Part shown: positions 14,684-34,718 of the stretch, in pieces
Layout of the letters: each line of letters starts with the position of its first letter
Numbering within the stretch: the first letter of the stretch is position 1
Source: Synergistota bacterium
Lineage (GTDB): Bacteria > Synergistota > GBS-1
DNA length: 64,000 nt
Assembly: GCA_025060595.1 (NCBI GenBank)
Contig: JANXBX010000001.1
Span: 20,459 to 84,458, forward strand
Direction of reading: 5' to 3'
Made by a program: the position numbers and the translations under genes
The notes under the pieces: model-generated
Told to the model about the DNA's origin: nothing
What the model saw: the letters and a program-made list of their open reading frames with translations, nothing else
Database searches by the model: none

Positions 14684-15133
14684 CTGAAGAGAATACTCCT
14701 TGGTGTGGGTAATGAACTTCTAGGGGACGATGGTGTAGGCCCTTGGATAGCTAAAAGAATAAATGGAATAAGAGGATGGATAGGGTTAGATGTGGGAACA
14801 GCTCCTGAGAACTTTACTTCCCTCATAAGAAGAGAAAAGCCCTCTCTTCTTGTAATAATCGATGCCACAGAAATGAATTTACTACCTGGAGAAATAAGAA
14901 TGATACCATTAGAGAAAATCCCAAAGTTAACGTACTTTTCAACCCATACACTATCTCTCTCTTTTCTAATAGAAAGCTTAAAAGGTGATGTCAAAAATAT
15001 CCTTTTTATAGGAGTGCAACCCAAGGCTATAGCCTTGGGTTGCACATTATCAGAAGAAGTATTAACTTCAGCTAAAAGGCTTCTTAACTTACTTATATCT
15101 AACAAATTCCTTGAAGAACTCACTTCACTATGA
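14684..15133 (+). CDS. hycI: [NiFe]-hydrogenase maturation endopeptidase (HycI/HybD family)
   Basis: Motif (K)RILLGVGNELLGDDGVG. The conserved N-terminus lies upstream of the first GTG (14705). AGGGAGGG Shine-Dalgarno sits 6 nt before a CTG at 14684. The antisense ORF 14662-15123 is spurious. Confidence 0.7.
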   Translation: MKRILLGVGNELLGDDGVGPWIAKRINGIRGWIGLDVGTAPENFTSLIRREKPSLLVIIDATEMNLLPGEIRMIPLEKIPKLTYFSTHTLSLSFLIESLKGDVKNILFIGVQPKAIALGCTLSEEVLTSAKRLLNLLISNKFLEELTSL

Positions 15134-15521
15134 GAGAATCTGAATATTTATTGTAATCAGCTAATAAAAACTCCGGACTCATGCTTAGACACTTTACTGG
15201 ACAAATATCATTACACTGCGAGCAAAAAGTGCATCTAGCAACATATATTTTTATCTTTTTCTCTGAGGGAAGAAACTCTATAGCACCTGCAGGACAAACC
15301 CTTATACACTGCCTACAACCTATACACTTATCTCTATCGTAAGATATCTTACCTCTAAAGCCTGGCGGAGTCTCTATAGGCGGAATAAGTTTAATTTCTC
15401 CACTTTTAACGGCCTCTAAGAACTCTAAAACCGAATCAGGAGCATACTTTGCAGGAAAAAGATTCGTCTCCGGTCCTCCAAAGAGCTGTTTGAAAAGCTC
15501 AAGAATCATTGGGGTAGCCAT
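15120..15521 (-). CDS. Mbh subunit N-like 2x[4Fe-4S] ferredoxin subunit (NuoI/HycF-like)
   Basis: Two CxxCxxCxxxCP motifs (CIGCRQCIRVCP and CTFCSQCNDICP). Confidence 0.8.
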   Translation of the reverse strand: MATPMILELFKQLFGGPETNLFPAKYAPDSVLEFLEAVKSGEIKLIPPIETPPGFRGKISYDRDKCIGCRQCIRVCPAGAIEFLPSEKKIKIYVARCTFCSQCNDICPVKCLSMSPEFLLADYNKYSDSLIVK

Positions 15522-15539
15522 TCTATAATTGCACCTCCT

Positions 15540-16526
15540 TTAAACTAACTTGTCACAAACCATCAGCAACAAACCAACCATGCTTGTTAAAAGCAAGGGA
15601 AACCAATATAGAGATGCTATCTGGTCAACCTTTAGTCTGGCAAACGCAACCCTAACCAAGGTTACAGAAAAAGTAAGTAAAACTAAAACCTTAATCCAGA
15701 AAAAGAGAAAATCCAAAATATAAGCACCCATTCCTGAGATTCCTAAAATAGAAGAGAGGTTCCATGGAAAAAACAAGTTAACAATTAAAGCGGTCATTCC
15801 TATAGTTTTAACACCATCAGCTATATAAAATAGAGCGTAATTCTTACCAGAGTACTCAACCATCACTCCTTCAGCTATCTCAGTTTCAGCTTCAGCAATA
15901 TCAAATGGAATCTTCCCAAGCTCTGCTGGAGTAACAACAAGTATAGCTATTAGTATCAAAAGAGCGCCAAACACACCTAAAACTCCCAAATTAGACCAAA
16001 TTGGTTTAAGTACATAAGTATATAGTGAAAAGGAAGGGAGATCCGGAAAGGTTTTCGAATAATACCAAGCTAAAGCTATAATAGCAGTAGCTAATGGGAA
16101 TTCATAACTCATCAAAAGAACCATTTCTCTTTGGGCTCCTACTGTAGCAAAGGGAGATCCCGATGCAAAGCCACCAGCAACGATTGCTATAGCAGCAACT
16201 GTAAAAATGTATATAATTAAAATTATATCTCCTCTATCTCCCAAAAGCGGTGGTAAGCTTCCCATCGGTTGATAGAAGAAAAGGCTAATCGAGGCAAGCA
16301 AGGCTAACCAAGGAGCTCCGTTAAATATCCAAGGGACAGCATTTTCTGGAACGATGTTTTCCTTTTGTAAAAGCTTTATAACATCATAGAAGGGCTGAAT
16401 TATAGGCGGTCCAAATCTAGCCTGCAACCTAGCAGCTATTTTCCTATCTATACCTTTGTAAAGGAGCCCCACAAACATAACAAAAATAGAAAGAAAAATG
16501 GTAAGAAGAATCTTTAAGGCTAACAT
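15540..16526 (-). CDS. Mbh subunit M-like membrane subunit (NuoH/HycD family)
   Basis: 328-aa polytopic membrane protein; NuoH-like. Confidence 0.8.
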   Translation of the reverse strand: MLALKILLTIFLSIFVMFVGLLYKGIDRKIAARLQARFGPPIIQPFYDVIKLLQKENIVPENAVPWIFNGAPWLALLASISLFFYQPMGSLPPLLGDRGDIILIIYIFTVAAIAIVAGGFASGSPFATVGAQREMVLLMSYEFPLATAIIALAWYYSKTFPDLPSFSLYTYVLKPIWSNLGVLGVFGALLILIAILVVTPAELGKIPFDIAEAETEIAEGVMVEYSGKNYALFYIADGVKTIGMTALIVNLFFPWNLSSILGISGMGAYILDFLFFWIKVLVLLTFSVTLVRVAFARLKVDQIASLYWFPLLLTSMVGLLLMVCDKLV

Positions 16527-17755
16527 TTTTTCCTCATCCTCCTTGTTTTTTCAACGCTCATCTTATGCAACTCTTCATGAGTCAGTATCTCTTTTCTACC
16601 GGAAGGATAAACAACCGTAACTCTATTGAGACAAGACATACAGGGATCAGTTGAAGCCACTATTATAGGAATATCAGCCACTTCAGCATCTTTAAACATC
16701 GGAACCCACGGTAGCAAGTTGTTATACGTCGGGGCCCTTATTTTCCAAACCGCTAGATTTTCACTACCAGCGACTATCTTAACATAGTGAACATCTTCAC
16801 CTCTTGGTCCTTCGTGCCTACCTACTCCTTCCCCTTCTCCTTTCTTTATGAGATTAAGAAGCTTAACAAGATTCTTTTCATAAACTATGTCTCCTTCAGG
16901 CATCATGGTTAACGCTTTATCTATAAGATCTATAGACTGATCTATCTCAAGAAGACGAACCACAGTTTTATCGTAAACATCTCCTACAATCTCACCTGTA
17001 TATATGTCTGGAGTTATAGCTTTAACACCAATATCTGCATAAGCAATATAAGGCTGATCTTGACGAATATCCTTGGGCACGCCTGAAGCCCTCAAAGTTG
17101 GTCCTACAGCACAAAGAGAAAGAGCGTCTTCCTTACTAAGTATACCTACATTTCTTGTCCTCATCATGAAAGTAGGATCCTCAAGAAGTAAGACCTTTAT
17201 TCTCTCCGAAAGAGTCCTATAGTAATCCAGCGATTTCCATATTTCACGACGGAGCTCCTCATTTATGTCCCTTCTAACGCCCCCTATTTGAACTATAGCA
17301 TAGTTAACCCTATTCCCAGTGATTTTTTCCAACAGATCCATAACGTTCTCCCTGATCTTCCACAATAACATAAACGCAGAATCAAATCCGACTTCATGCG
17401 CTGCAACGCCAGCCCACAATATATGAGAGTGAATTCTCTCAAGCTCAGCCACAATCAATCTTATATACTGAGCTCTCGGGGGAACCTCTATATTAAGAGC
17501 TTTCTCAACAGCAAAAGCCAAAGCCAAAGCATGCGTAACGGAACATATACCACAGATTCGCTCGGAAATATAAAGGCACTGTATAGGATTCCTTCTTGTT
17601 CCTATCCACTCTATACCACGATGAGCGTGTCCAGCGTATATCTTTACGTCTTTAACTCTTTCCCCCTCTATTTCAAAATGAAACTCTATAGGCTCTTTTA
17701 GGGCAGGATGAATCGGCCCTACTGGAACACTATACCCATAGCTTACTTTTCCCAT
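16520..17755 (-). CDS. Membrane-bound [NiFe] hydrogenase large (catalytic) subunit, Mbh/Ech group 4 (NuoD-like)
   Basis: N-terminal RICGICSVTH and C-terminal DPCMSCLNR Ni-Fe ligand pairs are both retained; NuoD-like core. Confidence 0.9.
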   Translation of the reverse strand: MGKVSYGYSVPVGPIHPALKEPIEFHFEIEGERVKDVKIYAGHAHRGIEWIGTRRNPIQCLYISERICGICSVTHALALAFAVEKALNIEVPPRAQYIRLIVAELERIHSHILWAGVAAHEVGFDSAFMLLWKIRENVMDLLEKITGNRVNYAIVQIGGVRRDINEELRREIWKSLDYYRTLSERIKVLLLEDPTFMMRTRNVGILSKEDALSLCAVGPTLRASGVPKDIRQDQPYIAYADIGVKAITPDIYTGEIVGDVYDKTVVRLLEIDQSIDLIDKALTMMPEGDIVYEKNLVKLLNLIKKGEGEGVGRHEGPRGEDVHYVKIVAGSENLAVWKIRAPTYNNLLPWVPMFKDAEVADIPIIVASTDPCMSCLNRVTVVYPSGRKEILTHEELHKMSVEKTRRMRKKC

Positions 17756-17769
17756 ACTTTATAGTCACC

Positions 17770-18291
17770 TCACTCGTTAACCTTTCTAATCAAACTTTGA
17801 GGTCCTTTTTCATCCTTTCTCCATGGATAAATCCCTTCAGGAAAATCATCAGCAAGAAAAACATGTTTTCTTTCCGGAAGGTTCTCATACACAACTCCTA
17901 TCATTTCTTCCTTCTCCTGCTCTGTTATCAAAGCACCTGGAATAAGATGACTTATAGATGGTAATCTAGGATCGCTTTTAGGAACCTTAACCTTAACATT
18001 TATTTGGAGCTCCCTGCTAAACTCTCCCCCATATATAGCAAAATGATATATAACTTGAATATCCTCTCCAATATCCTCAGCAGAAGCAACCATAGAATGA
18101 GGATACTCATCTAGCTCTTTAAGTATTGATACAAACCTCGGTAAAGCGAATGGCTTAATTTCTAACCATATTTCCTTATTTTCCAATTTTTTTACTCCAG
18201 CATTCCAGGTTTTTATTTCACCATTTATAAAATCTTCCCCTAGTCTTTCCTTAACAAGGGAGATTATCTCCTTCGCTTCAAGAATTTTCAT
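17770..18291 (-). CDS. Mbh subunit K-like (NuoC-like)
   Basis: 173 aa, NuoC/HycE-N-terminal-like. Sits between the small and large subunits as in group 4 hydrogenases. Confidence 0.75.
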   Translation of the reverse strand: MKILEAKEIISLVKERLGEDFINGEIKTWNAGVKKLENKEIWLEIKPFALPRFVSILKELDEYPHSMVASAEDIGEDIQVIYHFAIYGGEFSRELQINVKVKVPKSDPRLPSISHLIPGALITEQEKEEMIGVVYENLPERKHVFLADDFPEGIYPWRKDEKGPQSLIRKVNE

Positions 18292-18293
18292 CT

Positions 18294-18737
18294 CTAAGCT
18301 GCCACCTCCTCACCCCTACGTAGCTTCTCAAGCTTTACCCATGCCTGAACAACACCATAAACTATAGCCTCAGGACGTGGTGGACAACCAGGAACATACA
18401 CATCAACGGGTATTATTCTATCTATAGGACCCCATATATTATATGACTCGTAAAACACGCCACCGGTAGAACCACATCCTCCAACAACCATAACAACTTT
18501 GGGATCAGGTATCTGCTCATAAATTCTCTTCAACTTATCAGCCATTTTATGAGTTACGGGACCTGTAACAACTAAAACATCAGCATGACGAGGTGAACCG
18601 ACAAGCCTTATACCAAATCTCTCAGGATCATGACGAGGCATCAAAGCCGCCAGTATCTCTATATCACAGCCATTACAGGAGCCGCTATTAAAGTGGAATA
18701 CCCAAAGAGATTTATGGAAATACTCATTTATCATCAT
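18294..18737 (-). CDS. Group 4 [NiFe] hydrogenase small subunit (NuoB-like, Mbh subunit J-like)
   Basis: Motifs CNGCDIE, GSPRHADVLVVTGPV, GGCGSTGG and VPGCPPRP (proximal [4Fe-4S] ligands). Confidence 0.9.
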   Translation of the reverse strand: MMINEYFHKSLWVFHFNSGSCNGCDIEILAALMPRHDPERFGIRLVGSPRHADVLVVTGPVTHKMADKLKRIYEQIPDPKVVMVVGGCGSTGGVFYESYNIWGPIDRIIPVDVYVPGCPPRPEAIVYGVVQAWVKLEKLRRGEEVAA

Positions 18738-18747
18738 TCAACCCTCC

Positions 18748-19083
18748 CTAAACAAGTAATATTACAAGACCAATTATCATCAACATACCAACAAGCCAAC
18801 CTACATAATCAGAAACATCACCTGTATGCATTTCTATAAGAGGATCATAATAACCCTTTAAAGCCTCAACGAATCCCCAATATATGTTACTTGCTCTTAC
18901 GTGAAGCTCACCCTTTTCAGGAGTAGGATTACCGCTTAAAAAGGGCTTTACCTGCTCTGTTCCTTTTTTGTAATCGCTTCTTCCCTTGCTCCATATCCAA
19001 TAAACCAAGAGAGAGGCCAAAATCATACTCACAAGCCAAACTATAGGATCCCAAAAACCCTGTCCTGTATATATAAGAGTCAT
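18748..19083 (-). CDS. Mbh subunit I-like small membrane protein
   Basis: 111 aa, 2 TM, positionally equivalent to MbhI. Confidence 0.55.
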   Translation of the reverse strand: MTLIYTGQGFWDPIVWLVSMILASLLVYWIWSKGRSDYKKGTEQVKPFLSGNPTPEKGELHVRASNIYWGFVEALKGYYDPLIEMHTGDVSDYVGWLVGMLMIIGLVILLV

Positions 19084-19085
19084 TA

Positions 19086-20645
19086 TTACATCCCTCCCAA
19101 TATCTTAGATACATATGTTGTCTGATCTACCAACGCTTTAGCAGCAGGATCAACAATCGCCTTAACTATAAGCTCGGGGAAAAGCCCAAAGAATACAACC
19201 ACAAAAGCGAGAATTCCCATACCCACAAGCATGCTTGAAGGAACCTCCTTTAACTCCTTATATTCTGGTAATTGAGGTCCAAGAAAAGCGCTCTGGAAAA
19301 TTTTAACGAAAGAAGCAAGAGTTAAGACGCTAACAATCATAGCCATTATCGAAAGTATAGGATTAAATTTATAGACTGACTCGTATATCATGAGCTTGGA
19401 GGCAAAACCATTAAAGGGTGGCAAACCCGCTATAGCCGCAGCTCCAATGATAAAATAAACAGTAGTCCATGGCATATTATGAGCTAAACCCCCAAGCTTG
19501 TTTAAATCCCTCGTACCAGCTCTATAAAAAACAGCACCTGCTGTTAGAAAAAGCAATCCCTTATACATAGCGTGATTTATAATGTGAAATATTCCGCCCT
19601 TCATAGCCATAAGCCCATAATCCTTAAGCTCCATAGGATTGCCGAGAACAGCCAAACCAACACCAACTCCTAAAAGCATGTAACCTGTCTGGGAGATAGC
19701 ATGAAAAGCCATAAGCCTTTTTATCTCCTTCTGAACAAGGGCCATAGTAACACCTATAAACATGGATAAAACTCCAAATATTATAACTATCCAACCAACT
19801 GTAAGCGTGGACATCTTGATCCCAAATAGACTAAAGCAAGTTCTAAACAGACCATACAAACTTGCCTGACTAACGCTCACTAAAACAGCAGTAACCGAAG
19901 CGGGAGCCTCAGCATAAGCATCAGGTAACCACATATGAAGCGGAACAGCACCACACTTTAAAGCAAGGGAAACTACAAGCAAAATTAAAGCAACCTTATC
20001 GGCCCAAGAAAACTCCATCTTTTTAGCGATAGCAGCAAAATTAAGAGCATCATACTTACCATAAAGAAAACCAACTGCAACAAGTACAAACAATGCCGCC
20101 AAGCTACTTACAATCATATATTTTATAGCTGCCTCTATAGATTCTGCTTTGTAATATCTAAAACCTACCAAGGCTACAGAAGCTATAGAAGAGATCTCAA
20201 GGAAAACGAAGAAGTTAAATATATCACCAGTTAGCTCCATACCAAGCATCCCAACAAACATTAAGAGAAACAGAACATAATATTTATCCCTTCCGGTTTC
20301 TCTGCTAGTGTAAGCCATCGAGTAAATAGCACCAGCAAGCGCAGCTATGCTTCCTGAAAGAGCCATAAAGGCGCTCATCCCATCAACCTCAAATATAATT
20401 CTTATAGGGAACTTCATACCTGAGGGGAGTACTAAAGAAGGTAAAGCAGCACCAAATACATAAACTTGAGGCCCTAAAGCTGCAACCCTTCTCATAAGAA
20501 GAATCATCCCGATAGTAGAGAAAACCAAGGAAGCTATAGCCACACCATCTTGAATATATCTATTCCCAAAGACTTTATTAATTAACGGGATTGCAAAGGC
20601 AGCAAAAAGAGGAATAGCTAACACCAAAATAGGTAGATGCTCCAT
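19086..20645 (-). CDS. Mrp/Mnh antiporter subunit D-like (NuoL/M/N family), Mbh subunit H-like
   Basis: 519 aa, 14+ TM, NuoL/MnhD-type proton-pumping fold. Confidence 0.85.
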   Translation of the reverse strand: MEHLPILVLAIPLFAAFAIPLINKVFGNRYIQDGVAIASLVFSTIGMILLMRRVAALGPQVYVFGAALPSLVLPSGMKFPIRIIFEVDGMSAFMALSGSIAALAGAIYSMAYTSRETGRDKYYVLFLLMFVGMLGMELTGDIFNFFVFLEISSIASVALVGFRYYKAESIEAAIKYMIVSSLAALFVLVAVGFLYGKYDALNFAAIAKKMEFSWADKVALILLVVSLALKCGAVPLHMWLPDAYAEAPASVTAVLVSVSQASLYGLFRTCFSLFGIKMSTLTVGWIVIIFGVLSMFIGVTMALVQKEIKRLMAFHAISQTGYMLLGVGVGLAVLGNPMELKDYGLMAMKGGIFHIINHAMYKGLLFLTAGAVFYRAGTRDLNKLGGLAHNMPWTTVYFIIGAAAIAGLPPFNGFASKLMIYESVYKFNPILSIMAMIVSVLTLASFVKIFQSAFLGPQLPEYKELKEVPSSMLVGMGILAFVVVFFGLFPELIVKAIVDPAAKALVDQTTYVSKILGGM

Positions 20646-20651
20646 CTTCCA

Positions 20652-20996
20652 TCACCCTTTCAATTTTCTTAATTCCTTAACATCCAAGGTTCCATAATGC
20701 TTATAGGCCATAACAATTAAGCTCAATAACATCGCAGTTGTAGCAAGACCGATGACGATAGCGGTTAATGTTAGAGCCTGAGGAGTAGGAAGAACCATCT
20801 TTTTTCCAGCAGGCGCCATTGTGTATATAGGAGCAACTGCTCCCTTAACATACCCAAGAGTTATAAGAAAAAGGTTTACCGCCGCCTCCACTATGGATAA
20901 ACCTATAGCTATTTTAATCAAGTTTCTGTTAAACAATATTGCGTAAAGACCTAAGGCTAACATTATACCAACAACAACGAAGGGCATATACTTCAC
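20652..20996 (-). CDS. MnhC-like (NuoK-like) membrane subunit, Mbh subunit G-like
   Basis: 114 aa, 3 TM. Confidence 0.65.
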   Translation of the reverse strand: MKYMPFVVVGIMLALGLYAILFNRNLIKIAIGLSIVEAAVNLFLITLGYVKGAVAPIYTMAPAGKKMVLPTPQALTLTAIVIGLATTAMLLSLIVMAYKHYGTLDVKELRKLKG

Positions 20997-21484
20997 CTTT
21001 TATGCACCTCGCTTTCCTCTTTATTAAATGGTTTCAAGTATGCACCAAGAAACATAAAAAATAGAATCATACTTATACCACCAAAAACCTCAAGTCCAAC
21101 AGCCATATTCATCGGAGGAAGAGTCCCAGCAGTATTCAAATCGCCATCATTTATCCCTAAAGGAACTGGGTTTCCAAAAACTCCTCCAGAGTTAGCTATA
21201 AAGTTATAGAAAAAGGTAGCCCCTATACCTAAGAAAGCTATAGATATAAATAGTATTAGCCCCCCACTTTCTGCAACAGAGAAGAAGGAATCCTTATATT
21301 TCCTAAGAAAATCCTCCTTAGAGAAAGCTACTAAAAAAAGAGCTGTTGATGAGGCTATGACTGCACCTCCCTGGAAACCTCCTCCAGGTGTTAGATGTCC
21401 ATGAATAACAACGTAAAGTCCAAAAACTATGATAGCCCAAAAAGTTAAAGCTGTTATAGTCTTAACTATCTTAGACATGCTCAT
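20993..21484 (-). CDS. MnhB-like membrane subunit, Mbh subunit F-like
   Basis: 163 aa, membrane protein, overlapping starts and stops. Confidence 0.6.
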
Positions 21485-21750
21485 TTTCTCACCACTCCCC
21501 TAAAGGTAGCAGCCACCCCAATAACCGCTGTAAAAAGAACTGTAGCTTCTCCCAAGGTATCAAAACCACGGTAATCAAAAACTATTGATGTAACAACGTT
21601 ATTAGCAGCACACTCTTTCTGAGCATTTTGAATAAAGTAATCATCCATGTCACTTTGAAGCGGCTCCCCAAAGGGGTGAATGGTTGTCAAACCCCAAATT
21701 AATATAAGAGAGAAAAATAAAAAGCTAACCCATTTCAAGGCATTTCCCAT
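21481..21750 (-). CDS. Mbh subunit E-like small membrane protein
   Basis: 89 aa, single N-terminal TM helix. Confidence 0.5.
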
Positions 21751-21753
21751 TTT

Positions 21754-21996
21754 CTAATCCCTCCTAACTCCTCTTAAGGCAAAGATAAAAATCGCAGTAG
21801 TAAGGCCAGCTCCAATACCAGCTTCAGCTATCGCAACATCCGGAGCATGAAGAAGATAAAATTCTAAGGAAAGCACTAAGCTCATAGCAGATAGAGCTAT
21901 AACTGAAGCAAGTAGATTTCTAAGAAAAACAGCAAGATAAGCCGCAATAACCAAAATTATCAACGTAAAGAAGTGAGCCCAATATTCTATACCCAT
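21754..21996 (-). CDS. Mbh subunit D-like small membrane protein
   Basis: 80 aa, 2 TM. Confidence 0.5.
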   Translation of the reverse strand: MGIEYWAHFFTLIILVIAAYLAVFLRNLLASVIALSAMSLVLSLEFYLLHAPDVAIAEAGIGAGLTTAIFIFALRGVRRD

Positions 21997-21999
21997 CTT

Positions 22000-22356: not shown

Positions 22357-22358
22357 AT

Positions 22359-24094: not shown

Positions 24095-24167
24095 AATCCA
24101 TACCTCCCTTAAGAAAGCTATCAAAATGATAGCACAAAAATTTGATTTAAAAGTTGCTTTCGGAAAA

Positions 24168-24196
24168 TTGACAGACTTTAAAAATTAACCTATTAT
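24168..24196 (+). promoter_or_regulatory. Sigma70-type promoter TTGACA-17-TATTAT upstream of the globin-sensor gene
   Basis: TTGACA at 24168-24173, 17-nt spacer, TATTAT at 24191-24196. Shine-Dalgarno AAAAAGGAGG at 24215-24224, ATG at 24233. Confidence 0.5.
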
Positions 24197-24232
24197 GAAA
24201 AAAAACCTCTCATAAAAAGGAGGCTTTACAGC

Positions 24233-24946: not shown

Positions 24947-24952
24947 ATATAA

Positions 24953-26669: not shown

Positions 26670-27836
26670 TTATTCCCTAACCCCGAGATACTTCTCTTCC
26701 TTGGATATATTACCATTCATCAAATCCTCATAAACGCTTCTTATAAGAGATGGAGGAGTATCTCTTCCTCCAAGACCATAGATATAAGATGCTAAAACAG
26801 GTTTCGCCTTTACATCATAAAGTGCAGACTTTATTTCACAGAAGAGAGGAGCTTCTGCACCTACAGAGTAAGCCCTATCTAAAACAGCCACAGCCTTCTT
26901 ACCTTCTAGAAGACGAGATATTTCTTCTTTGGGGAACGGACGATAAAGTCTTATCTTAAGTAGACCAACCTTTTTACCTTGAGCCCTTAATTCCTTAACA
27001 ACATGCTTTGTAGTTCCAGCTGTGGAAGACATAACAACTATTACATATTCAGCATCATCCATGTAAAACCCCTCAACTTTAGGATATTTTCTACCTGTAA
27101 TTTTAGATAGCTCTTCAGCTACCTCCTCGTAAGCCTTCGGAACATGCTTCATTGCCTCAAACTGTTGACGTTTATGCTCAAAGTAGTAATCAAAAAGATC
27201 AAGAGCTCCATAAGTCTTCGGATTATCAGTATCAAGTAAAGGATTCCAAGGCTTAAACTCCCCTATAAACTTCTTAACCACCTCATCATCTAATATCTCA
27301 ACAGGTTCAACTCCATGAGAGGTTATAAACCCGTCTTGGCAAACCATAACAGGTAAACGAACATCTTCACGCTCTGCAAGTCTTATAGCCAAGATGGTAT
27401 GATCGTAAACCTCTTGAGCTGTTTCACTATAGATCTGGATCCAACCAGAATCCCTCTCCGCCATTGTATCAGCATGATCACAATGTATGTTTATAGGAGC
27501 AGAAAGAGCTCTATTAACCACACCCATAACAATCGGTAGCCTTAAGCCAGATGCTATATAAACTACCTCGTGCATCAAAGCCAAACCCTGAGCAGATGTA
27601 GCAGTCATAACCCTTGCACCTGCAGCAGAGGCTCCAACGCAAGCCGACATAGCAGAGTGCTCACTCTCAGCAGTGACAAGCTCGGTATCTACAAGACCGT
27701 CGGCAACAAATTCAGCAAAGGTCATCATTATCTCCGTCTGAGGAGTTATGGGATAAGCAGCAACCACATCAGGGTTAATTTGTCTCATAGCCTCAGCAAA
27801 GGCTGCATTACCAGTCAAAGGTATTTTCTTTTTCAT
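26670..27836 (-). CDS. porA: Pyruvate/2-oxoacid:ferredoxin oxidoreductase alpha subunit
   Basis: 388 aa; N-terminus LTGNAAFAEAMRQINPDVVAAYPITPQTEIM is typical of PorA. Confidence 0.9.
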   Translation of the reverse strand: MKKKIPLTGNAAFAEAMRQINPDVVAAYPITPQTEIMMTFAEFVADGLVDTELVTAESEHSAMSACVGASAAGARVMTATSAQGLALMHEVVYIASGLRLPIVMGVVNRALSAPINIHCDHADTMAERDSGWIQIYSETAQEVYDHTILAIRLAEREDVRLPVMVCQDGFITSHGVEPVEILDDEVVKKFIGEFKPWNPLLDTDNPKTYGALDLFDYYFEHKRQQFEAMKHVPKAYEEVAEELSKITGRKYPKVEGFYMDDAEYVIVVMSSTAGTTKHVVKELRAQGKKVGLLKIRLYRPFPKEEISRLLEGKKAVAVLDRAYSVGAEAPLFCEIKSALYDVKAKPVLASYIYGLGGRDTPPSLIRSVYEDLMNGNISKEEKYLGVRE

Positions 27837-28135
27837 TTCTTCTCACCTTCCTCAAAAAGTGACTCCGGTTTCATCTCTATAGCACTTTTTGGACAAATAG
27901 CAGCACAGACTCCACAACCTTTACAATAATCATAATTTATACCACTTACCTTATTGTCCCTTACAAGAATAGAGCCATCCGGACAGTGAAGCCAACACAT
28001 AAAACAATTTATGCATTTATCCTTATTCCATACAGGTCTTATACTTCTCCACGTCCCAGTTTTATACTTAATGCTGTTTCCCGCTTCAAGTATTACACCC
28101 CCAGGCGGGAGTTCCTTCCAACCCTTAAGACTCAT
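27833..28135 (-). CDS. porD: POR delta subunit (2x[4Fe-4S] ferredoxin)
   Basis: Motifs CINCFMCWLHCP and CKGCGVCAAICP. Confidence 0.85.
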   Translation of the reverse strand: MSLKGWKELPPGGVILEAGNSIKYKTGTWRSIRPVWNKDKCINCFMCWLHCPDGSILVRDNKVSGINYDYCKGCGVCAAICPKSAIEMKPESLFEEGEKK

Positions 28136-28713
28136 TCTCCCTGCACCTCCTCATAGCCACGGCGCATGGCCCTTAGATTCGCTTCCACTCTCTCAGGAGT
28201 AAGTCTCCCCTCAAACTTACTTCTAAAATGTTCCTCAAAGCTTCTAAGAGGAACTTCCCCTATTATCTTAGCAAGAGCCCCAAGTATCGGCGTATTAGGG
28301 AAATTAACTTTCATTTCCTCAAGAGCAATCTTAGTAGCATCAACAACATAAACTTTCTGAGACTTCAAGCCTAATTTTCTCTTCACATCAGCAGGAGTCA
28401 ATGTGGTATTTACAAGCAGTACGCCGTCTTCTTTTAAACCCTCAGCTACATTAACAGCTGTAAGCAATGTAGGATCAATTACCACAACAATATCAGGATT
28501 CTCTACCTGACAGTGAAGTAAAATTTCCACCTTACTTAACCTATCAAAGGCTTTCATAGGAGCTCCCGACCTCTCCGCGCCATACTCAGGAAAGGCCTGA
28601 ATGTGATATCCCTGCTCAAAAAACACCTCAGCTAAAATCTGGGCCCCTGTTTTAGCCCCTTGGCCTCCTCTACCATGCCAACGTACTTCAATGAGCCTCT
28701 CCAAGACCTTCAC
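28132..28713 (-). CDS. porG: POR gamma subunit
   Basis: 193 aa with the N-terminal GRGGQGAKTGAQILAE motif. Confidence 0.85.
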   Translation of the reverse strand: MKVLERLIEVRWHGRGGQGAKTGAQILAEVFFEQGYHIQAFPEYGAERSGAPMKAFDRLSKVEILLHCQVENPDIVVVIDPTLLTAVNVAEGLKEDGVLLVNTTLTPADVKRKLGLKSQKVYVVDATKIALEEMKVNFPNTPILGALAKIIGEVPLRSFEEHFRSKFEGRLTPERVEANLRAMRRGYEEVQGE

Positions 28714-28776: not shown

Positions 28777-29409
28777 CTAAACCTCTTCGACAACAAAATC
28801 TATCAAATGTTTGGTTTCATTAAGTAAAACCAAGGTGAAACCTCTTTCCCTTCTATACTCAACGATACTATAAGAAGCCGTGTCAAAATGAAACTTCCAG
28901 AAATAAGGTTTCTTAACCTCAAACATAGCTGCAAAGAGAGGTTTCAAAACTGCCCTATGAGTAACAATAGCTATCGTTTCCCTCTCATGCTTCTCAAGAA
29001 TCTTTAACAAGGCAGAAAAAGCTCTTTCTTTAACGTCATCTACCTTCTCCGCCCCAGGAATATTCAGATCCTCTGGAACTGTAATCCAGATTTTCCATTC
29101 GCGTGGATACTCTTTTTCTATCTCCGTTTTAACCCTGCCCTCCCAAAAGCTAAGAGAGATGTTATTAAAACCTTCCTCCACTATGGGAGTTAAATTATGA
29201 GGTTCTCCTATTATCTCTGCGGTTTTTAATGCCCTTAGAAGAGGGCTCGTATAAATCGCATTAATCTTAAATTTCTTTATCTCATCTCTTAGAAGTTCAG
29301 CCTGTTTTATTCCATTTTTGTTTAAAGGAAAATCTATTCTTCCCCTAAAAAGACCTACTCTATTACCCTCACACTCACCATGTCTCACAAAAATAAGGGT
29401 GGTTTTCAC
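28777..29409 (-). CDS. Histidine phosphatase superfamily (phosphoglycerate-mutase-like) protein
   Basis: N-terminus LIFVRHGECEGN (RHG catalytic motif); 210 aa. Confidence 0.75.
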   Translation of the reverse strand: MKTTLIFVRHGECEGNRVGLFRGRIDFPLNKNGIKQAELLRDEIKKFKINAIYTSPLLRALKTAEIIGEPHNLTPIVEEGFNNISLSFWEGRVKTEIEKEYPREWKIWITVPEDLNIPGAEKVDDVKERAFSALLKILEKHERETIAIVTHRAVLKPLFAAMFEVKKPYFWKFHFDTASYSIVEYRRERGFTLVLLNETKHLIDFVVEEV

Positions 29410-29452: not shown

Positions 29453-30754
29453 TCAGTTTTTTCTTAAAACAGGTAGCAATTTATGACCTTCTGGAATAAT
29501 ATAAGTAGAGGGGTTAGGGCCAAGCAAACTCTTAGCTTCCTCTATTCCTTTCCTCAAGCTTCTTACCGGTTCCATACCCATTTTTTTAACCTCATCTTCA
29601 GGCAAATTAGAGATAAGATAAACCTTAAACTTTTCCGCTATCAGCGCCATATGAAAAGCCATATGCCCACCTATAGTATAATTTTCTCTTAAAGCCATCT
29701 CTCTTTCCTTACTATCTCGATAATTAACAAGGGTTTGATAAAAATCCTCATTACCTATGCCCTCTCTACATTCAGATAAAAGTATTATGACCCCTCCCTC
29801 TTTAGTAGCTTTTTCTGCGTTATAAAGTGTTTTATAAGTTTGATAAAGATTTATATCTTCAGGATAACCGCCACAAGAGATTATCGTAAGTTCAGCAAGC
29901 TCTTCTATTTCAACACTACAATACTCATTATAGAGTCTTGCGCCTTCCTCATGAGCAGCCACATAATCTCCTGCAACAACATGAGCTATCTTTCTTTCTG
30001 GATTCACAATAGTGTTAATAAGAAAAGCCGGCTTTATAAAGCTTGCTACCTCAAGAGCATCTTCGCTTACTCTGTTACCACGCATTACACCTGAACAAAC
30101 TGATGGATCAAGACCTTTACCAGGTTCAGGATGAAGAGCAAGCCCGTGATTTTTCATTATAGAGTCCCTTGAGGAAACACCAGGCATTATCGATTTTTTC
30201 CCTCCACCAAAACCATATAAGAAGTGATGAACTATTCCACCAGTTAAAATGACCTTGTCAGCTTCAAGAAGTCTCCTGTTTATCTCCACAGGAGTTCCAT
30301 AGCTTGTCTTTCCAAGATAAACAACTTCCTTTTTGTTTCGAGCACGATGGTTATATATTCTTCCTTTAAGAAATGCGTAAGCTTCCTTCCCGAGAATTTT
30401 TTCAAACTCTTCCTCAGTATGATCCCGATGATCACCATTAGCACAAATAGCAAATATATCTTCATCTATAACACCAGCGTTCTTAAGTTCCTTCAAAATA
30501 AACGGCATAAAAACATGATGTCTAACCCAAAGTCTCGTCATATCGCTAAAGAGAATGCATACCTTTTCTCCCTTCTTAACTATTTCCCTTAAAGGAGCAG
30601 AGTTTATAGGTTTAGTAAGGGCCTCTATAACTGGTTTTTCTTCGCTCTGATGTTTTGGCATTTCCTTGGGCTCTAGGATCCCTATTATATTATCCAACTC
30701 ATAATCGAACTCTATAAAACCATTTCCAAATGCCAAGCCAAAAGGTTTTTTCAT
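29453..30754 (-). CDS. larA: Lactate racemase LarA family protein (Ni-pincer-nucleotide-dependent; DUF2088 plus LarA C-terminal domain)
   Basis: 433 aa. The architecture and its position at the end of an lct-like operon match LarA/LctF. Confidence 0.7.
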   Translation of the reverse strand: MKKPFGLAFGNGFIEFDYELDNIIGILEPKEMPKHQSEEKPVIEALTKPINSAPLREIVKKGEKVCILFSDMTRLWVRHHVFMPFILKELKNAGVIDEDIFAICANGDHRDHTEEEFEKILGKEAYAFLKGRIYNHRARNKKEVVYLGKTSYGTPVEINRRLLEADKVILTGGIVHHFLYGFGGGKKSIMPGVSSRDSIMKNHGLALHPEPGKGLDPSVCSGVMRGNRVSEDALEVASFIKPAFLINTIVNPERKIAHVVAGDYVAAHEEGARLYNEYCSVEIEELAELTIISCGGYPEDINLYQTYKTLYNAEKATKEGGVIILLSECREGIGNEDFYQTLVNYRDSKEREMALRENYTIGGHMAFHMALIAEKFKVYLISNLPEDEVKKMGMEPVRSLRKGIEEAKSLLGPNPSTYIIPEGHKLLPVLRKN

Positions 30755-30773: not shown

Positions 30774-32192
30774 TTAAAATATCTTACCAGGATTCATTAT
30801 ATTATTAGGATCAAAAACTCTTTTCATCTTCTTCATCAATTCTACTTCTTTTCTTTTGGTTTCATTTAAGACCCTTTTCTTAAGAAGACCTATCCCATGC
30901 TCGCCGCTTACAGCTCCACCAAGCTCTGCTGCTTTTAAAGCTAACTTATCAAGAATCTCCTCAGAGATATATCTCCATTCCTCCAAAGATACATGCGATG
31001 GTTTTAAAGGAGCTGGGTGGAGGTTACCATCAGCTACATGAGCTGCAACTGGAATTTTAACTTTATACTCATTTGACATCTCACTCAAAAAGGACATCAT
31101 ATCAGGAATACTTGATGTAGGAAGAACCACATCCCCTGTGGAAACATAAGGATCAACTGCCTTAAGAGCCTCAAGCCATGTTCTTCTAACCTTCCAAATG
31201 CTTTCAGAGGCGCTTCTATTATCAGCTACAAAAACATCAATTGCTCCTTTAGACAATAATGCTTTTCCCACTTTTTCATAAATATTTTCCAATTCCGTTC
31301 TATTTTTTCCTTCCAGCTGAACTATTAAGAAAGCCTCAGCCTCGCCTTGAAACGGAAAACTCGTGTTGTTATACTTAGCACTAAGCTCAATAGAAACCTT
31401 ATCTATAAACTCTAAAGCTGATGGAAGTTCTTTACTTTCCATTAGGATCAAAGGCACGCTATCTACAGCATCCTCTACCTTCTTAAAAGGAATCAATAAA
31501 TCTACCGTTTTGCCCGGTAATGGTATCAAGTTAAGGTAAATTTTAGAAAACACCGCTAAGGTCCCTTCAGAACCTACTAACAGCTTCACAAAGTTATAAC
31601 CGCTTGAATCCTTTCTTCTTTTACCTCCAAATATTACAACCTCCCCATTAGGAAATACAGCTTCTATTCCTAAAACATGGTGTCCCGTACTTCCATATTT
31701 TATTACCTTACTCCCTCCCGCATTTGTCGCCACATTTCCTCCTATAAAACTTGTCTCAACGCTCATAGGATAACCTGCATAATATAATCCCTCCTCCATA
31801 ACTCTCCTACACAAGTCGTTTGTTACAACCCCTGGTTCAACCACAGCAACAAGGTTCTTCTTATCCACCTCTATAACTCTATTCATCCTTTCCAAGGAAA
31901 GAACTATTCCACCAAATAGAGGGATGCAACCTCCTGAAAGTCCACTTCCCGCGCCTCTTGGAGTAACAGGTATCTTTTCCTCATTTGCCAATTTCATTAT
32001 CTCTGAAATCTGCTCAACCTTTTCAGGTTTAACAACTACATCAGGCATACGAGCATAGTATTTGAAAGCCGATTCATCATGAGAGTAGGCCTCAAGAGCA
32101 TCTTTATCTTCGTAAATAACCCCTCTTTCTCCAACTATCCTTATCAACTCCCTAACAAAGGAGGGAGTAACCTTCCCAAATTCCTCAATCAT
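30774..32192 (-). CDS. FAD-binding (PCMH-type) D-lactate/glycolate oxidase family dehydrogenase (GlcD-like), LctD-like
   Basis: FAD_binding_4 region PRGAGSGLSGG, and GGSISGEHGIG-like segment GGAVSGEHGIGLLK. Confidence 0.85.
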   Translation of the reverse strand: MIEEFGKVTPSFVRELIRIVGERGVIYEDKDALEAYSHDESAFKYYARMPDVVVKPEKVEQISEIMKLANEEKIPVTPRGAGSGLSGGCIPLFGGIVLSLERMNRVIEVDKKNLVAVVEPGVVTNDLCRRVMEEGLYYAGYPMSVETSFIGGNVATNAGGSKVIKYGSTGHHVLGIEAVFPNGEVVIFGGKRRKDSSGYNFVKLLVGSEGTLAVFSKIYLNLIPLPGKTVDLLIPFKKVEDAVDSVPLILMESKELPSALEFIDKVSIELSAKYNNTSFPFQGEAEAFLIVQLEGKNRTELENIYEKVGKALLSKGAIDVFVADNRSASESIWKVRRTWLEALKAVDPYVSTGDVVLPTSSIPDMMSFLSEMSNEYKVKIPVAAHVADGNLHPAPLKPSHVSLEEWRYISEEILDKLALKAAELGGAVSGEHGIGLLKKRVLNETKRKEVELMKKMKRVFDPNNIMNPGKIF

Positions 32193-32193
32193 A

Positions 32194-33210
32194 CTATCTT
32201 CCCTCCTTATAACTTTTAAGCCTCTCTATTAAAAGAGGAACCACTTCAAACAAGTCTCCTACTATTCCAAAATCACAAACCTTAAATATGTTAGCCTCAG
32301 GATCATTATTTATAGCAACGATCGTCTCAGAGGAGGACATACCAGCAATATGTTGAACAGCACCAGAGATCCCTATAGCCATATAAAGCCTTGGGCTAAC
32401 CGTCTTCCCACTTAAACCTACCTGATGAGGATAGGATACCCATCCCATATCAACAGCAGATCTCGAAGCTCCTAAAGCCCCTCCCAAGAGCCTAGCAAGC
32501 TCACGAACCATCCCAAAGTTCTTCTCGCCTTTAAGTCCTTTACCACCAGATACAACTACATCAGCCTCCTGAATGGGAGCCTCCAACGAATTATCTTTAA
32601 TAAATCTAACAAATCTTACTTTAGACTCATAAAGGCTTTCAGGATACTCCTTTAATATAATTTCCCCAGAACGAGATGTATTCCTTGACAGTGGTTTCCT
32701 CGATCTAGGTCGAACGGTGGCCATTTGCGGTCTATGATTGGGAGTTTTAATAGTAGCCATTACATTACCCCCAATAGCTGGTCTCGTTTGAAGAAGAAGC
32801 CCCGTCTCAGGTTCTATATCGAGTCCAGTACAATCAGCTGTAAGGCCAGTCCTTATTCTTGCAGCAAGTATAGGCATAACAGTCCTGCCAACTGTAGTTG
32901 CCGAAGCAATAAATATCTCTGGGTTAAACTCTTTTACCAGTTCCTCAAGAACACGGGCATAAGCATCAGGCTTAAAACGCTCAAGGAGAGGATGATCCAC
33001 AAGGTAAACTTTATCAGCCCCTCTATATATTAACTCCCTTACTTTATCCTTTAGCCCACAACCTATAATAACACTTGAAAGCTTAACACCAAGCTTGTCT
33101 GCAAGCTCTCTACCCCAATTTAAAAGCTCATAAGAAACAGAGCTTATTTCGCCCTCCCTTTGCTCTCCAAGAGTCCATACCTCCCTAAGTATTCCAGATT
33201 CGTTCATCAA
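32194..33210 (-). CDS. etfA: Electron transfer flavoprotein alpha subunit
   Basis: C-terminal FAD-binding region AIGISGAVQHIAGM. Confidence 0.9.
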   Translation of the reverse strand: MMNESGILREVWTLGEQREGEISSVSYELLNWGRELADKLGVKLSSVIIGCGLKDKVRELIYRGADKVYLVDHPLLERFKPDAYARVLEELVKEFNPEIFIASATTVGRTVMPILAARIRTGLTADCTGLDIEPETGLLLQTRPAIGGNVMATIKTPNHRPQMATVRPRSRKPLSRNTSRSGEIILKEYPESLYESKVRFVRFIKDNSLEAPIQEADVVVSGGKGLKGEKNFGMVRELARLLGGALGASRSAVDMGWVSYPHQVGLSGKTVSPRLYMAIGISGAVQHIAGMSSSETIVAINNDPEANIFKVCDFGIVGDLFEVVPLLIERLKSYKEGR

Positions 33211-33218
33211 AATCCCTC

Positions 33219-34013
33219 CTATAATATTCCCTTACTTTCAAGAAAAACTATAAGCTCACTAACTGCCTTATAGGGATCCTTGCCAGAAATGATTTTCCCA
33301 CCTCTTGATAACTTAGGATAAAATATTTTAACAACTCTTGTAGGAGAACCCTCTAATCCTATTAATTTCCTATCCAGGTTCAGCTTTTCCACTGTTAGAA
33401 TCGGAATCTGAATCTCCTTAGCCCTAAGCTTTCCAGAAAGATTAGGTAATCTCGGTTCATTTATTTCTTTTACTACACTTAACAATGCAGGTAAATCCGT
33501 TTCAACTACCTCATACCCTCCTTCAACTACCCTCCATACCCTTATATATCCCCTTTCGAGCTTTTCTATTTTACTTACATAAGTTAGAGCTGGAATTCCA
33601 AGAAAAGAGGCAACACTTGGTCCAACCTGACCAGTTTCCCCATCTGTAGCTCGTTCGCCACAAAATATAAGATCGAATCCTCCTAGATACTTTATGGCTT
33701 CTGAGAGAGTATAAGCAGTAGCCCATGTATCAGATCCTGCAAGAAGCTTATCGGAAATAAGATAACCTTCATCACAACCCATAGATATAGCATCTTTAAT
33801 AGCATCAGCTGCCATAAGTGGTCCCATAGATATCACGGTAATCTTGGCATCTCCACCCATACGCTCTTTAACTCGAACGGCTTCCTCAACAGCATACATA
33901 TCTAATGGGTTAAGCTCCGCCTCCATTTCTGTTCTTATCATGGTTCCAGTCTTCTCATCCATCTTTACCTTATCCGTCGCAGGAACCTGTTTCACCAATA
34001 CACAAATTTTCAA
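33219..34013 (-). CDS. etfB: Electron transfer flavoprotein beta subunit
   Basis: N-terminus MKICVLVKQVPATD, typical of EtfB. Confidence 0.9.
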   Translation of the reverse strand: MKICVLVKQVPATDKVKMDEKTGTMIRTEMEAELNPLDMYAVEEAVRVKERMGGDAKITVISMGPLMAADAIKDAISMGCDEGYLISDKLLAGSDTWATAYTLSEAIKYLGGFDLIFCGERATDGETGQVGPSVASFLGIPALTYVSKIEKLERGYIRVWRVVEGGYEVVETDLPALLSVVKEINEPRLPNLSGKLRAKEIQIPILTVEKLNLDRKLIGLEGSPTRVVKIFYPKLSRGGKIISGKDPYKAVSELIVFLESKGIL

Positions 34014-34675
34014 GGTTCTCCCCTCCCAATCCCCTTAATTCTCTTAAGCACATTTTCTATATGCTCCCTCATAAGCTCTTCCACTTCCTCAGCCTTTTTC
34101 TGACTAACGAGACTTATGATCTCTTCGTGATCTTTAAGAGAGCTCTCCATAACCCCAGGAACATAAAGAGACTTAAGCCTATAAGCATCAATATAAGACA
34201 TCATACTCTCAAGCACCTTTAAAAGCCTATCATTTCCGGAAAAGGCCCAGATAAACTTATGGAAACTCGCATCTAAATCAGCATAAGCTATAACATCTTT
34301 TCTCTCACATGCTAATTTCATCTCTTTCAGTTTAAGATTTAACTTCTCTATCTCAGTGATGCCACATCTACTCGTAAATAGCCTTACTGCAAGTCCCTCT
34401 AAAGCGCTCCTTATTTGAAAGACATCCTCTATATCCTTCAAGGAAATTTCAGCCACAAAGGCACCCTGATTGGGAAGAAGTTCTACCAATCCTTCCGCGG
34501 CAAGACGATGAATAGCTTCTCTCACCGGTGTTCTACTTGTGCCTAACTGAGAAGCAAGCTGAGACTCTACCAATCTACTACCTCCTTTAAGATCCCCTTT
34601 TAAGATAGCCTCCTTAAGAATCTCATAAACCTTATGATTCAGCAGATCCCGTCTTTCAACCTTCCGTAGAGATAT
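34010..34675 (-). CDS. GntR/FadR-family transcriptional regulator (LctA-like), with FCD ligand-binding domain
   Basis: HTH LVESQLASQLGTSRTPVREAIHRL. The in-frame conserved N-terminus (RKVERRDLLNHKVYEILKEAILKGDLKGG) extends 34 codons upstream of the ORF-track TTG (34573). A near-cognate ATA at 34673-34675 has a GGGAGGTGA Shine-Dalgarno 6 nt upstream. Confidence 0.75.
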   Translation of the reverse strand: MSLRKVERRDLLNHKVYEILKEAILKGDLKGGSRLVESQLASQLGTSRTPVREAIHRLAAEGLVELLPNQGAFVAEISLKDIEDVFQIRSALEGLAVRLFTSRCGITEIEKLNLKLKEMKLACERKDVIAYADLDASFHKFIWAFSGNDRLLKVLESMMSYIDAYRLKSLYVPGVMESSLKDHEEIISLVSQKKAEEVEELMREHIENVLKRIKGIGRGEP

Positions 34676-34690
34676 TTACCATCACCTCCC

Positions 34691-34718
34691 TGTGGTATAC
34701 TGTATACAGTATACCACA
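34691..34718. promoter_or_regulatory. 28-bp perfect palindrome TGTGGTATACTGTATACAGTATACCACA, candidate GntR/FadR-type operator of the lct-like operon
   Basis: Exact reverse-complement symmetry, TGGTATAC...GTATACCA, immediately upstream of the regulator's Shine-Dalgarno. Confidence 0.6.

Follow-up and report, generated by a model that had tools for sequence, protein, structure and literature searches.

The 64-kb stretch of contig JANXBX010000001.1 analyzed here (hereafter, the window), from a Synergistota bacterium, carries genes for lactate oxidation, for a four-subunit pyruvate:ferredoxin oxidoreductase (POR), and for a [NiFe] hydrogenase of the membrane-bound type (Mbh). The original prediction held that these genes form three contiguous blocks and, together, a complete electron path from lactate to H2. 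We combined an open reading frame (ORF) map and Pfam scans over the whole window with NCBIfam models, read against their curated cut-offs, and with sequence matches to PDB. ORF map and Pfam confirmed every gene named in the original prediction within 15120-34718, all of them minus-strand, and the right-hand end of that interval is the last base of a 28-bp palindrome upstream of the regulator gene. The gene sets follow one another as a GntR/FCD regulator, the two subunits of an electron-transferring flavoprotein (EtfB and EtfA), an FAD-dependent lactate dehydrogenase (LDH) resembling LctD of Acetobacterium woodii, and a LarA homologue; then a histidine-phosphatase-family gene (HisPhos) and porGDAB; and, beyond a 2.6-kb spacer, mbhA-N with a convergent hycI. 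The three sets do lie within 19.6 kb, but they are not strictly contiguous, as HisPhos, a PhzF-family gene, and two plus-strand genes intervene.

34691-34718, no strand: 28-bp perfect palindrome TGTGGTATACTGTATACAGTATACCACA, operator candidate of the GntR/FCD regulator
34010-34675, minus: GntR/FCD-family regulator, LctA-like (Pfam FCD and only the C-terminal part of the GntR helix-turn-helix, HTH; canonical-start ORF 34010-34573)
33219-34013, minus: EtfB, small subunit (Pfam ETF)
32194-33210, minus: EtfA, large subunit, 338 aa (Pfam ETF and ETF_alpha)
30774-32192, minus: FAD-dependent GlcD-family D-lactate dehydrogenase, LctD-like (Pfam FAD_binding_4 and FAD-oxidase_C)
29453-30754, minus: LarA-superfamily nickel-pincer-dependent 2-hydroxyacid racemase (Pfam Lar_N and LarA_C)
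28777-29409, minus: histidine-phosphatase-family protein (Pfam His_Phos_1)
28132-28713, minus: porG (Pfam)
27833-28135, minus: porD (Pfam)
26670-27836, minus: porA (Pfam)
25726-26658, minus: porB (Pfam)
14705-23128, minus and plus: hydrogenase gene block, mbhA-N and convergent hycI (Pfam)
22622-23128, minus: mbhA
22359-22664, minus: mbhB
22000-22356, minus: mbhC
21754-21996, minus: mbhD
21481-21750, minus: mbhE
20993-21484, minus: mbhF
20652-20996, minus: mbhG
19086-20645, minus: mbhH
18748-19083, minus: mbhI
18294-18737, minus: mbhJ
17770-18291, minus: mbhK
16520-17755, minus: mbhL
15540-16526, minus: mbhM
15120-15521, minus: mbhN
14705-15133, plus: hycI-type hydrogenase maturation protease (Pfam HycI), convergent with mbhN with a 14-bp overlap

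On balance, we lean toward reading this 19.6-kb stretch as three gene sets, each organized separately and each well known by itself, in an uncultured thermophile from a hot spring. The lct-type operon and por would make up a ferredoxin-balanced module, and a general-purpose Mbh would be its neighbor in part of one lineage, as a separate unit with no operator in common.

The dehydrogenase had LctD of A. woodii as its top PDB match (7QH2_C, 344 bits, residues 26-471), followed by a glycolate oxidase at 262 bits, and the HxxDGNLH and EHGIG segments were kept in the alignment with LctD. Bifurcating Etfs (bEtfs) have been operationally recognized by etfA and etfB lying no more than two genes from the LDH gene (PMC6085437), and here the EtfB, EtfA, and LDH genes are directly adjacent on one strand. 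Etfs of the bifurcating type carry a second FAD where others have AMP, together with an NADH site; we compared both Etf subunits with solved members, namely CarDE, LctBC, and those of A. fermentans, T. maritima, and C. difficile. EtfA scored 252-308 bits against these and at most 163 bits against human and Paracoccus Etf, as a measure of sequence similarity. EtfB gave 172-200 bits (CarD 200, LctB 197) versus 77-87 bits for non-bifurcating Etfs, again as similarity only. For the two subunits, similarity to bifurcating Etfs was thus about twice that to non-bifurcating ones.

The alpha, beta, gamma, and delta subunits of the POR are encoded together, and Por-specific models were the best for them. 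PorA and PorD passed their NCBIfam models (PorA_Arch, 552.9, cut-off 550; PorD_Arch, 121.4, cut-off 120). PorB and PorG also had Por as the best model and stayed below the cut-offs (PorB, 373, cut-off 405; PorC, 212, cut-off 270). PorA, PorB, and PorD scored above the corresponding Vor models.

POR gives two reduced ferredoxins per pyruvate, and Mbh oxidizes ferredoxin, not NADH. An LctBCD-type LDH oxidizes two reduced ferredoxins per lactate (reaction 22, PMC5861303). If the enzyme of the window is A. woodii-like, the LDH/Etf would therefore consume as much reduced ferredoxin as POR makes, so that lct and por together would be ferredoxin-neutral, with a net yield of two NADH and no reduced ferredoxin left for Mbh. 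We found no Rnf, no Nfn, and no NADH-dependent hydrogenase encoded by any annotated ORF in the window. Given this neutrality and the absence from the window of an enzyme leading from NADH to ferredoxin or H2, the three blocks alone would be an incomplete lactate-to-H2 path, and we do not uphold the claim of a complete one.

The hydrogenase itself was as predicted, a group 4 [NiFe] Mbh with an Mrp-type module. The block at 15120-23128 holds 14 genes in the Pyrococcus furiosus order A-N, the Mrp-type module included, and 13 of the 14 products had a Pfam match; the remaining one, MbhI, had 6CFW_I as its sole PDB match. MbhL aligned end to end with P. furiosus 6CFW_L at 375 bits versus 125 bits with 6U8Y_L of the MBS/Mbx type. 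Both of its NiFe-binding cysteine motifs (RICGICSVTH and DPCMSCLNR) were intact, and 33 residues follow DPCMSCLNR as a C-terminal extension for protease cleavage. MbhH passed PRK08376, the model for the Pyrococcus-type antiporter subunit (726, cut-off 662), and HycI passed TIGR00142 (121.1, cut-off 119.1). On the NiFe motifs and PDB scores, we rejected an Mbx/MBS-type hydrogenase; the Mbx-like or inactive large subunit against which the original prediction had cautioned was, as far as sequence can tell, not what we found. There was no fdh or cooS gene in the window that would indicate a formate- or CO-linked hydrogenase partner, and there were no hyp maturation genes in it. In the locus L011 (GCA_030153785.1), a 153-aa ORF with no Pfam match is deposited antisense to hycI at 12639-13100; hycI is intact on the other strand and 81% identical to that of the window, and this gene call is an annotation artefact.

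We saw no sign of shared regulation of the three gene sets. The palindrome at 34691-34718, probably the operator of the GntR/FCD regulator, occurs once in the window at up to three mismatches (expected 0), and its half-site repeat has no other copy in the window, with none near por or mbh. It is kept directly upstream of the regulator gene in L002-5, L008, L016, and L021. Because this candidate operator is confined, within the window, to the lct promoter, nothing ties por or mbh to the regulator. The best minus-strand sigma-70-like match, at 28773-28745, falls in the 63-bp gap before porG, and porGDAB probably has its own promoter. Opposite-strand genes occupy the spacer before mbh. Our prediction is that lct, por, and mbh are separate transcription units.

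We then turned to gene order in relatives. GatB, labeled 'Synergistetes bacterium', was 81-90% identical within a small clade and did not exceed 58% identity to anything else, and because the clade is so isolated, all informative synteny comes from one lineage. This GBS-1 clade includes GCA_030153785.1 (the DJKA70 bin) and 'bacterium GBS-1' of Great Boiling Spring, which NCBI lists under unclassified Bacteria. The order radical-SAM, GntR, EtfBA, LDH, racemase, HisPhos, porGDAB was kept in GBS-1-type contigs, in L008, and in DJKA70; more distant Synergistota had EtfBA-LDH-racemase only. The hydrogenase was a less constant companion. The window's order porAB-membrane protein-globin-PhzF-mbh is shared by L015, whose MbhL is 92% identical. 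Two overlapping DJKA70 loci merged exactly into a 38-kb map with the order lct-HisPhos-por-DUF4234-[five-gene ABC transporter]-globin-mbh-hycI, in which PhzF is missing. L013/14, of the lineage with 83% MbhL identity, carries a sugar ABC transporter between the globin sensor and mbh. In bacterium GBS-1, a Crp regulator and a hybrid-cluster protein follow porB and there is no mbh within 6 kb, although this genome stands at the same housekeeping divergence as the mbh-adjacent relatives (GatB 85% versus 87%); an exact-sequence look-up placed no listed MbhL on its 687-kb contig.

Beyond the clade, we used a metagenome survey by MbhL alignment as an out-group only, since the matches listed were relatives at 57-63% identity, with close relatives not among them. 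Among these matches, none of the 80 more distant Mbh loci had por, Etf, LDH, or racemase genes near mbh; apparent porD matches in them were cross-matches to the ferredoxin-like MbhN. Similarly, about 75 further loci with a LarA homologue outside the clade were without a group 4 hydrogenase near the racemase. One 'MbhL-like' match near a LarA homologue, in L089, was NuoD of a complex I operon, with the C terminus DIVLGEVDG and no cysteines. Adjacency of mbh to lct-por therefore recurred in two related species, with a different spacer, and nowhere among the loci surveyed outside the clade. Unrelated flanking genes (MurJ, SDR, DUF6506, Lin0512, the E1 subunits, and TRAP on one side; radical SAM, the TtuA-like gene, and an aminotransferase on the other) were equally collinear in relatives, so that shared ancestry suffices to explain the adjacency of mbh and lct-por. 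The synteny to which the original prediction had pointed was thus only partly there: lct-por is kept in the clade and mbh adjoins it in two relatives, but mbh is absent next to por in bacterium GBS-1 and outside the clade. We are inclined to see the proximity of mbh to lct-por as inherited gene order in a narrow lineage and not as a dedicated operon or regulon.

These results bear directly on the model from which the work began, a dedicated and selected lactate-to-H2 island in which LDH/Etf and POR deliver ferredoxin to Mbh for syntrophic oxidation with ion-gradient conservation. Such a route has a precedent, as syntrophic lactate use is documented in Sulfurospirillum, where pyruvate:ferredoxin oxidoreductase (PFOR) is connected by ferredoxin to a group 4 hydrogenase (PMC6242987), and the modules are suited to it, with all three complete, their catalytic motifs intact, and their co-localization within 20-24 kb persisting in L015 and GCA_030153785.1 despite spacer turnover. 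Under A. woodii-like confurcation by the LDH/Etf, however, the model would leave a ferredoxin balance of zero, and the window has no converter of NADH to ferredoxin. It also has no shared operator to offer and no recurrence outside the clade; opposite-strand genes and variable inserts separate por from mbh, mbh does not adjoin por in bacterium GBS-1, and the collinearity of the unrelated flanks leaves the adjacency explained by ancestry. We consider a dedicated island unlikely.

The protein that the original prediction had called lactate racemase LarA belongs to the LarA superfamily, and its catalytic and nickel-pincer nucleotide (NPN)-binding residues are intact, but neither the signature of lactate racemases nor the NCBIfam cut-off for LarA was reached. 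On the LarA model NF033504, it scored 317.6 bits (cut-off 460), and its best NCBIfam model was the LarAH10 family at 489.9 bits, also under the cut-off of 540. The catalytic residues His108 and His174 and the NPN-binding residues Arg75, Lys184, and His200 (L. plantarum numbering) were identical in all five cases, and the corresponding core (R74, H109, H177, K187, H203) was invariant in 28 homologues (alignment A1). At the specificity positions 175, 176, 358, and 359, the protein has F, L, H, and M, where the lactate-racemase signature is F, F, W, and E/Q (T in LarA1), and the characterized LarAH10 of M. elsdenii racemizes many hydrophobic 2-hydroxyacids and not lactate (PMC11770544). In alignment A1, F178, L179, and M365 are near-invariant in this clade of the superfamily, H364 is the majority residue in the consensus, and the catalytic core is intact. 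Members of the clade often adjoin genes for an LctD-like LDH and a lactate permease, in Synergistota, Syntrophomonadaceae, Dethiobacter, and others.

Gene context suggests lactate as the racemase substrate. In the relatives L009 and L010/L019, whose racemases are 71% and 62% identical, a lactate permease lies between the LDH and racemase genes, and the operon GntR-EtfB-EtfA-LDH-lactate permease-Yip1-racemase has the order of A. woodii lctABCDEF. Across the fetched flanks of 80 GTDB loci anchored on the racemase clade, an LctD-like LDH was present in 29 and a lactate permease in 15. This context of permease and LctD-like LDH in relatives gives more confidence in lactate as the substrate. No larB, larC, or larE was found in the window; a PP-loop gene at 35867-36817 was considered as LarE and rejected, its protein being TtuA-like. 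Uptake could depend on a TRAP (tripartite ATP-independent periplasmic) transporter that lies 6.5 kb upstream of the operon, beyond the interval of the original prediction.

41146-44065, minus: TRAP transporter (Pfam), as follows
43559-44065, minus: DctQ
42222-43562, minus: DctM
41146-42192, minus: DctP

Among PDB entries, DctP came closest to 2ZZV (135 bits), the lactate-binding protein TTHA0766 from Thermus thermophilus, and next to proteins that bind ketoacids, and the transporter, as a lead only, may be a candidate lactate/2-oxoacid uptake system replacing the absent permease.

The same observations allow two other readings of the operon. It could serve another 2-hydroxyacid, for example a hydrophobic or branched one in amino-acid fermentation, with a broad LarAH10-like racemase and an oxidoreductase taking the matching 2-oxoacid. 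The higher score on the LarAH10 model than on true LarA (490 versus 318 bits), the specificity residues F, L, H, and M in place of the lactate-racemase signature, and the substrate range of characterized LarAH10, which acts on hydrophobic 2-hydroxyacids and not on lactate, would all fit, as would the missing lactate permease in the window's operon and the aminotransferase and IlvD genes a few kilobases upstream. We nonetheless judge it very unlikely, as the racemase stays below the LarAH10 cut-off, the dehydrogenase is nearest to LctD, the orthologous operons of relatives include a lactate permease, and PorA and PorD pass pyruvate-specific models and outscore Vor models.

Alternatively, the flux could run in reverse, with LDH-EtfAB reducing pyruvate by electron bifurcation (2 NADH + pyruvate + oxidized ferredoxin -> lactate + 2 NAD+ + reduced ferredoxin) and the reduced ferredoxin so formed feeding Mbh, for a yield of H2 plus an ion gradient. 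LctBCD can run its reaction in both directions (PMC5861303), Mbh would become a logical partner, and an operon without an uptake permease fits production over consumption. The racemase, the FCD regulator with its operator, and the lactate permease of relatives are, however, hallmarks of a catabolic lct operon, and the conserved partner is por, a competitor for pyruvate, rather than mbh. To this reverse operation we give very little credence, and we infer flux from lactate to pyruvate.

Several observations weigh against the reading that we favor, a ferredoxin-balanced lct-por module with a general-purpose Mbh beside it. First, EtfA has no N-terminal [4Fe-4S] ferredoxin domain: it aligns from residue 66 of CarE and residue 72 of LctC, and its 338 residues include no N-terminal cysteine motif. 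In the structure study of A. woodii Ldh-EtfAB, this domain was found vital, in the role of an adaptor to external ferredoxin (PMC9232219). Without it, ferredoxin coupling, and hence the electron bookkeeping, may differ. The assignment of the enzyme in the original prediction to the confurcating kind of A. woodii accordingly holds for LctD as the nearest relative and for the bifurcating-type Etf similarity, but not for EtfA, which lacks the essential domain. Bcd-type EtfAB bifurcates without an N-terminal ferredoxin domain, and for that reason this EtfA may still have a confurcating function. Second, the closest NCBIfam Etf models include that of the non-bifurcating acryloyl-CoA reductase Etf of C. 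propionicum, with all scores below cut-off. Third, the specificity residues of the racemase fit no characterized class, with the LarAH10 of M. elsdenii inactive on lactate, and there is no lactate permease in the operon or elsewhere in the window. Fourth, promoter and terminator scans were overall at the chance level of shuffled sequence, and single sites are hints. Finally, the three blocks remain together in two other species despite a remodeled spacer, and this persistence could mean selection for proximity. On the boldest reading, lct-por-mbh would be a selected unit of this isolated thermophilic clade, in which an LDH-EtfAB without the ferredoxin domain couples differently from the A. woodii enzyme, through direct binding of ferredoxin or by reducing pyruvate with bifurcation, so that lactate metabolism feeds the ion-pumping Mbh, and the racemase would represent a new specificity class; this is quite unlikely, and if true the unit would be an undescribed energy-conserving lactate/H2 metabolism.

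In the ferredoxin-balanced module, the lct-type operon would be controlled by the GntR/FCD repressor at its palindromic operator. The racemase would interconvert L-lactate and D-lactate, and the LctD-like LDH with the bifurcating-type EtfAB would oxidize D-lactate to pyruvate and reduce NAD+, this uphill oxidation being pulled, by homology with A. woodii LctBCD, through co-oxidation of reduced ferredoxin. PorGDAB would convert pyruvate to acetyl-CoA and CO2, restoring exactly the reduced ferredoxin spent in the first unit. The predicted sum of lct and por is lactate + CoA + 2 NAD+ -> acetyl-CoA + CO2 + 2 NADH, and the pairing of the two gene sets is conserved in the clade. The third unit, mbhA-N with hycI, would serve the cell in general as ion pump and ferredoxin:proton oxidoreductase whenever there is an excess of reduced ferredoxin, as when pyruvate, amino acids, or 2-oxoacids are oxidized. 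Electrons from lactate would reach it only via an enzyme encoded elsewhere, such as a reverse-running Rnf, an Nfn, or a confurcating NADH-dependent hydrogenase.

The regulator gene has an anomalous start. Read from a canonical start codon, its ORF is short of ~26 residues at the beginning of the HTH, and the regulators of relatives are 220-224 aa long. A full-length reading requires an in-frame ATA at 34675; an in-frame TAA stands at 34678-34676, and GTG and ATG codons are out of frame. In the window (34573-34690) and in DJKA70 (L016 6077-6190), an in-frame ATA or ATT follows 7-8 nt after the Shine-Dalgarno sequence GGAGGTGA, and the canonical start codons are out of frame, at 55 and 56 nt from a conserved GTTTAT; in L008 and L002, that distance is 54 nt and the regulators have an in-frame GTG. 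The gene may begin at a non-canonical codon, or a frameshift or a mistake in the assembly could explain the anomaly. Immediately upstream of the palindrome lies a radical-SAM gene, which in the por-carrying close relatives L002-5, L008, L016, and L021 is likewise directly upstream of the regulator gene; its product resembles AmmeMemoRadiSam and glycyl-radical activases weakly, far below cut-off. The HisPhos protein passed no NCBIfam cut-off. In most close relatives (L002-5, L008, L009, L016), but not in L006/L007 or L010, its gene comes right after that of the LarA homologue, and it is kept in L009, whose fetched contig has no por downstream. The features around and between the gene sets are as follows.

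34739-35860, minus: radical-SAM protein with a cysteine-rich N-terminal region (Pfam/NCBIfam)
23216-25672, mixed strands: spacer between por and mbh, with PhzF-family, protoglobin-MCP (methyl-accepting chemotaxis protein) sensor, and DUF4234 genes (Pfam)
24953-25672, plus: DUF4234 membrane protein (Pfam)
24233-24946, plus: protoglobin-MCP sensor (Pfam)
23216-24124, minus: PhzF-family gene (Pfam)
5499-12184, minus: cluster downstream of mbh with DUF6506, Lin0512-family, E1 alpha and beta, NAD-kinase/DAGK-like, and TRAP transporter genes

GC content within the window is lowest in the spacer. The sensor encoded in it is a soluble protein of 237 aa, a protoglobin fused to an MCP signaling domain. 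Its gene adjoins mbh in every relative examined, even where the remaining spacer differs, and the protein might sense gas or redox state in connection with hydrogenase expression or taxis. Around the PhzF gene (23216-24124, versus 3629-4540 in L001), the offsets between the window and contig JAOAII010000002.1 of GCA_026414785.1 differ by 3 nt on either side, which suggests a one-codon difference between the two deposited copies. The cluster at 5499-12184 is kept downstream of mbh in relatives; L013/14 has additional inserted genes and a partial cluster in the fetched locus.

Each gene set has well-known counterparts. The lct-type operon shares with A. woodii lctABCDEF (Ldh-EtfAB, 7QH2) the order regulator, EtfB, EtfA, FAD-LDH, and then racemase, an LDH nearest to LctD, an Etf of bifurcating sequence type, and, in relatives, a permease at the position of LctE. 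It differs in the EtfA without a ferredoxin domain, the missing permease, the non-canonical racemase, the added HisPhos and porGDAB, and the host, which belongs to a thermophilic non-acetogen lineage. The hydrogenase matches P. furiosus MBH (6CFW) in the order of its 14 genes, the MbhL motifs, MbhI (through 6CFW_I), the Mrp-like subunits A-H, and an adjacent HycI-type protease, whereas its host is bacterial and its constant neighbor is the protoglobin-MCP sensor; its nearest MbhL relatives beyond the clade, including Caldatribacteriota, are at ~60-63% identity. As in PorABDG of Thermococcales, Thermotoga, and methanogens, the gamma, delta, alpha, and beta subunits are in one operon, with PorA and PorD reaching equivalog cut-offs; unlike there, PorB and PorG fall below theirs and por lies directly downstream of an lct operon.

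Lactate dehydrogenases are reportedly linked with por also in the luo operon type of Desulfovibrio, with Vita et al. (2015), cited in PMC9232219, as the reference. A comparable locus was found in L064 (9980-18700), a deltaproteobacterial metagenome-assembled genome, in which porGDAB is clustered with genes for a LarA homologue, an FAD-LDH of the GlcD type, and two CCG Fe-S proteins resembling GlcF; a multiheme cytochrome gene lies upstream, and the locus resembles luo-type lactate utilization but has a four-subunit POR. Lactate-oxidizing genes and POR are clustered in these cases as in the window, but their LDHs are of the GlcD/GlcF or LutABC type without Etf, they feed sulfate respiration, and no Mbh is linked. 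In the syntrophic fermentation of lactate and pyruvate by Sulfurospirillum, PFOR and ferredoxin lead to a Hyf-like hydrogenase of group 4, a process feasible only at low H2 (PMC6242987). The likeness to the window would lie in a lactate-to-H2 route ending at a membrane-bound, cytoplasm-facing group 4 [NiFe] hydrogenase; in Sulfurospirillum, however, the LDHs are NAD-independent, the hydrogenase is an 8-subunit Hyf versus the 14-subunit Mbh, and the genes are not co-localized. The linkage that the original prediction took to be previously undescribed is thus probably new in its exact arrangement, but linkage of LDH and POR and the passage from lactate to H2 via a group 4 hydrogenase are known.

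We conclude that each component is a fresh member of a known family and that the use of these results is in annotation rather than in a new system. A single pathway made of the three blocks would amount to a compact genetic plan for converting lactate to H2 syntrophically, but the evidence does not favor one. The most interesting details lie apart from the point of the original prediction: an LctD-EtfAB without the [4Fe-4S] adaptor domain that is essential in the sole structurally characterized enzyme, and an F-L-H-M clade of the LarA superfamily that stands beside LDHs and lactate permeases in several phyla and is not classified as a lactate racemase. The value of the locus is mainly for metabolic reconstruction of the uncultured hot-spring GBS-1 clade, for which its genes predict conversion of lactate to acetyl-CoA via an Etf-dependent LDH, with the ferredoxin loop closed by POR, and a ferredoxin-driven, ion-pumping hydrogenase.

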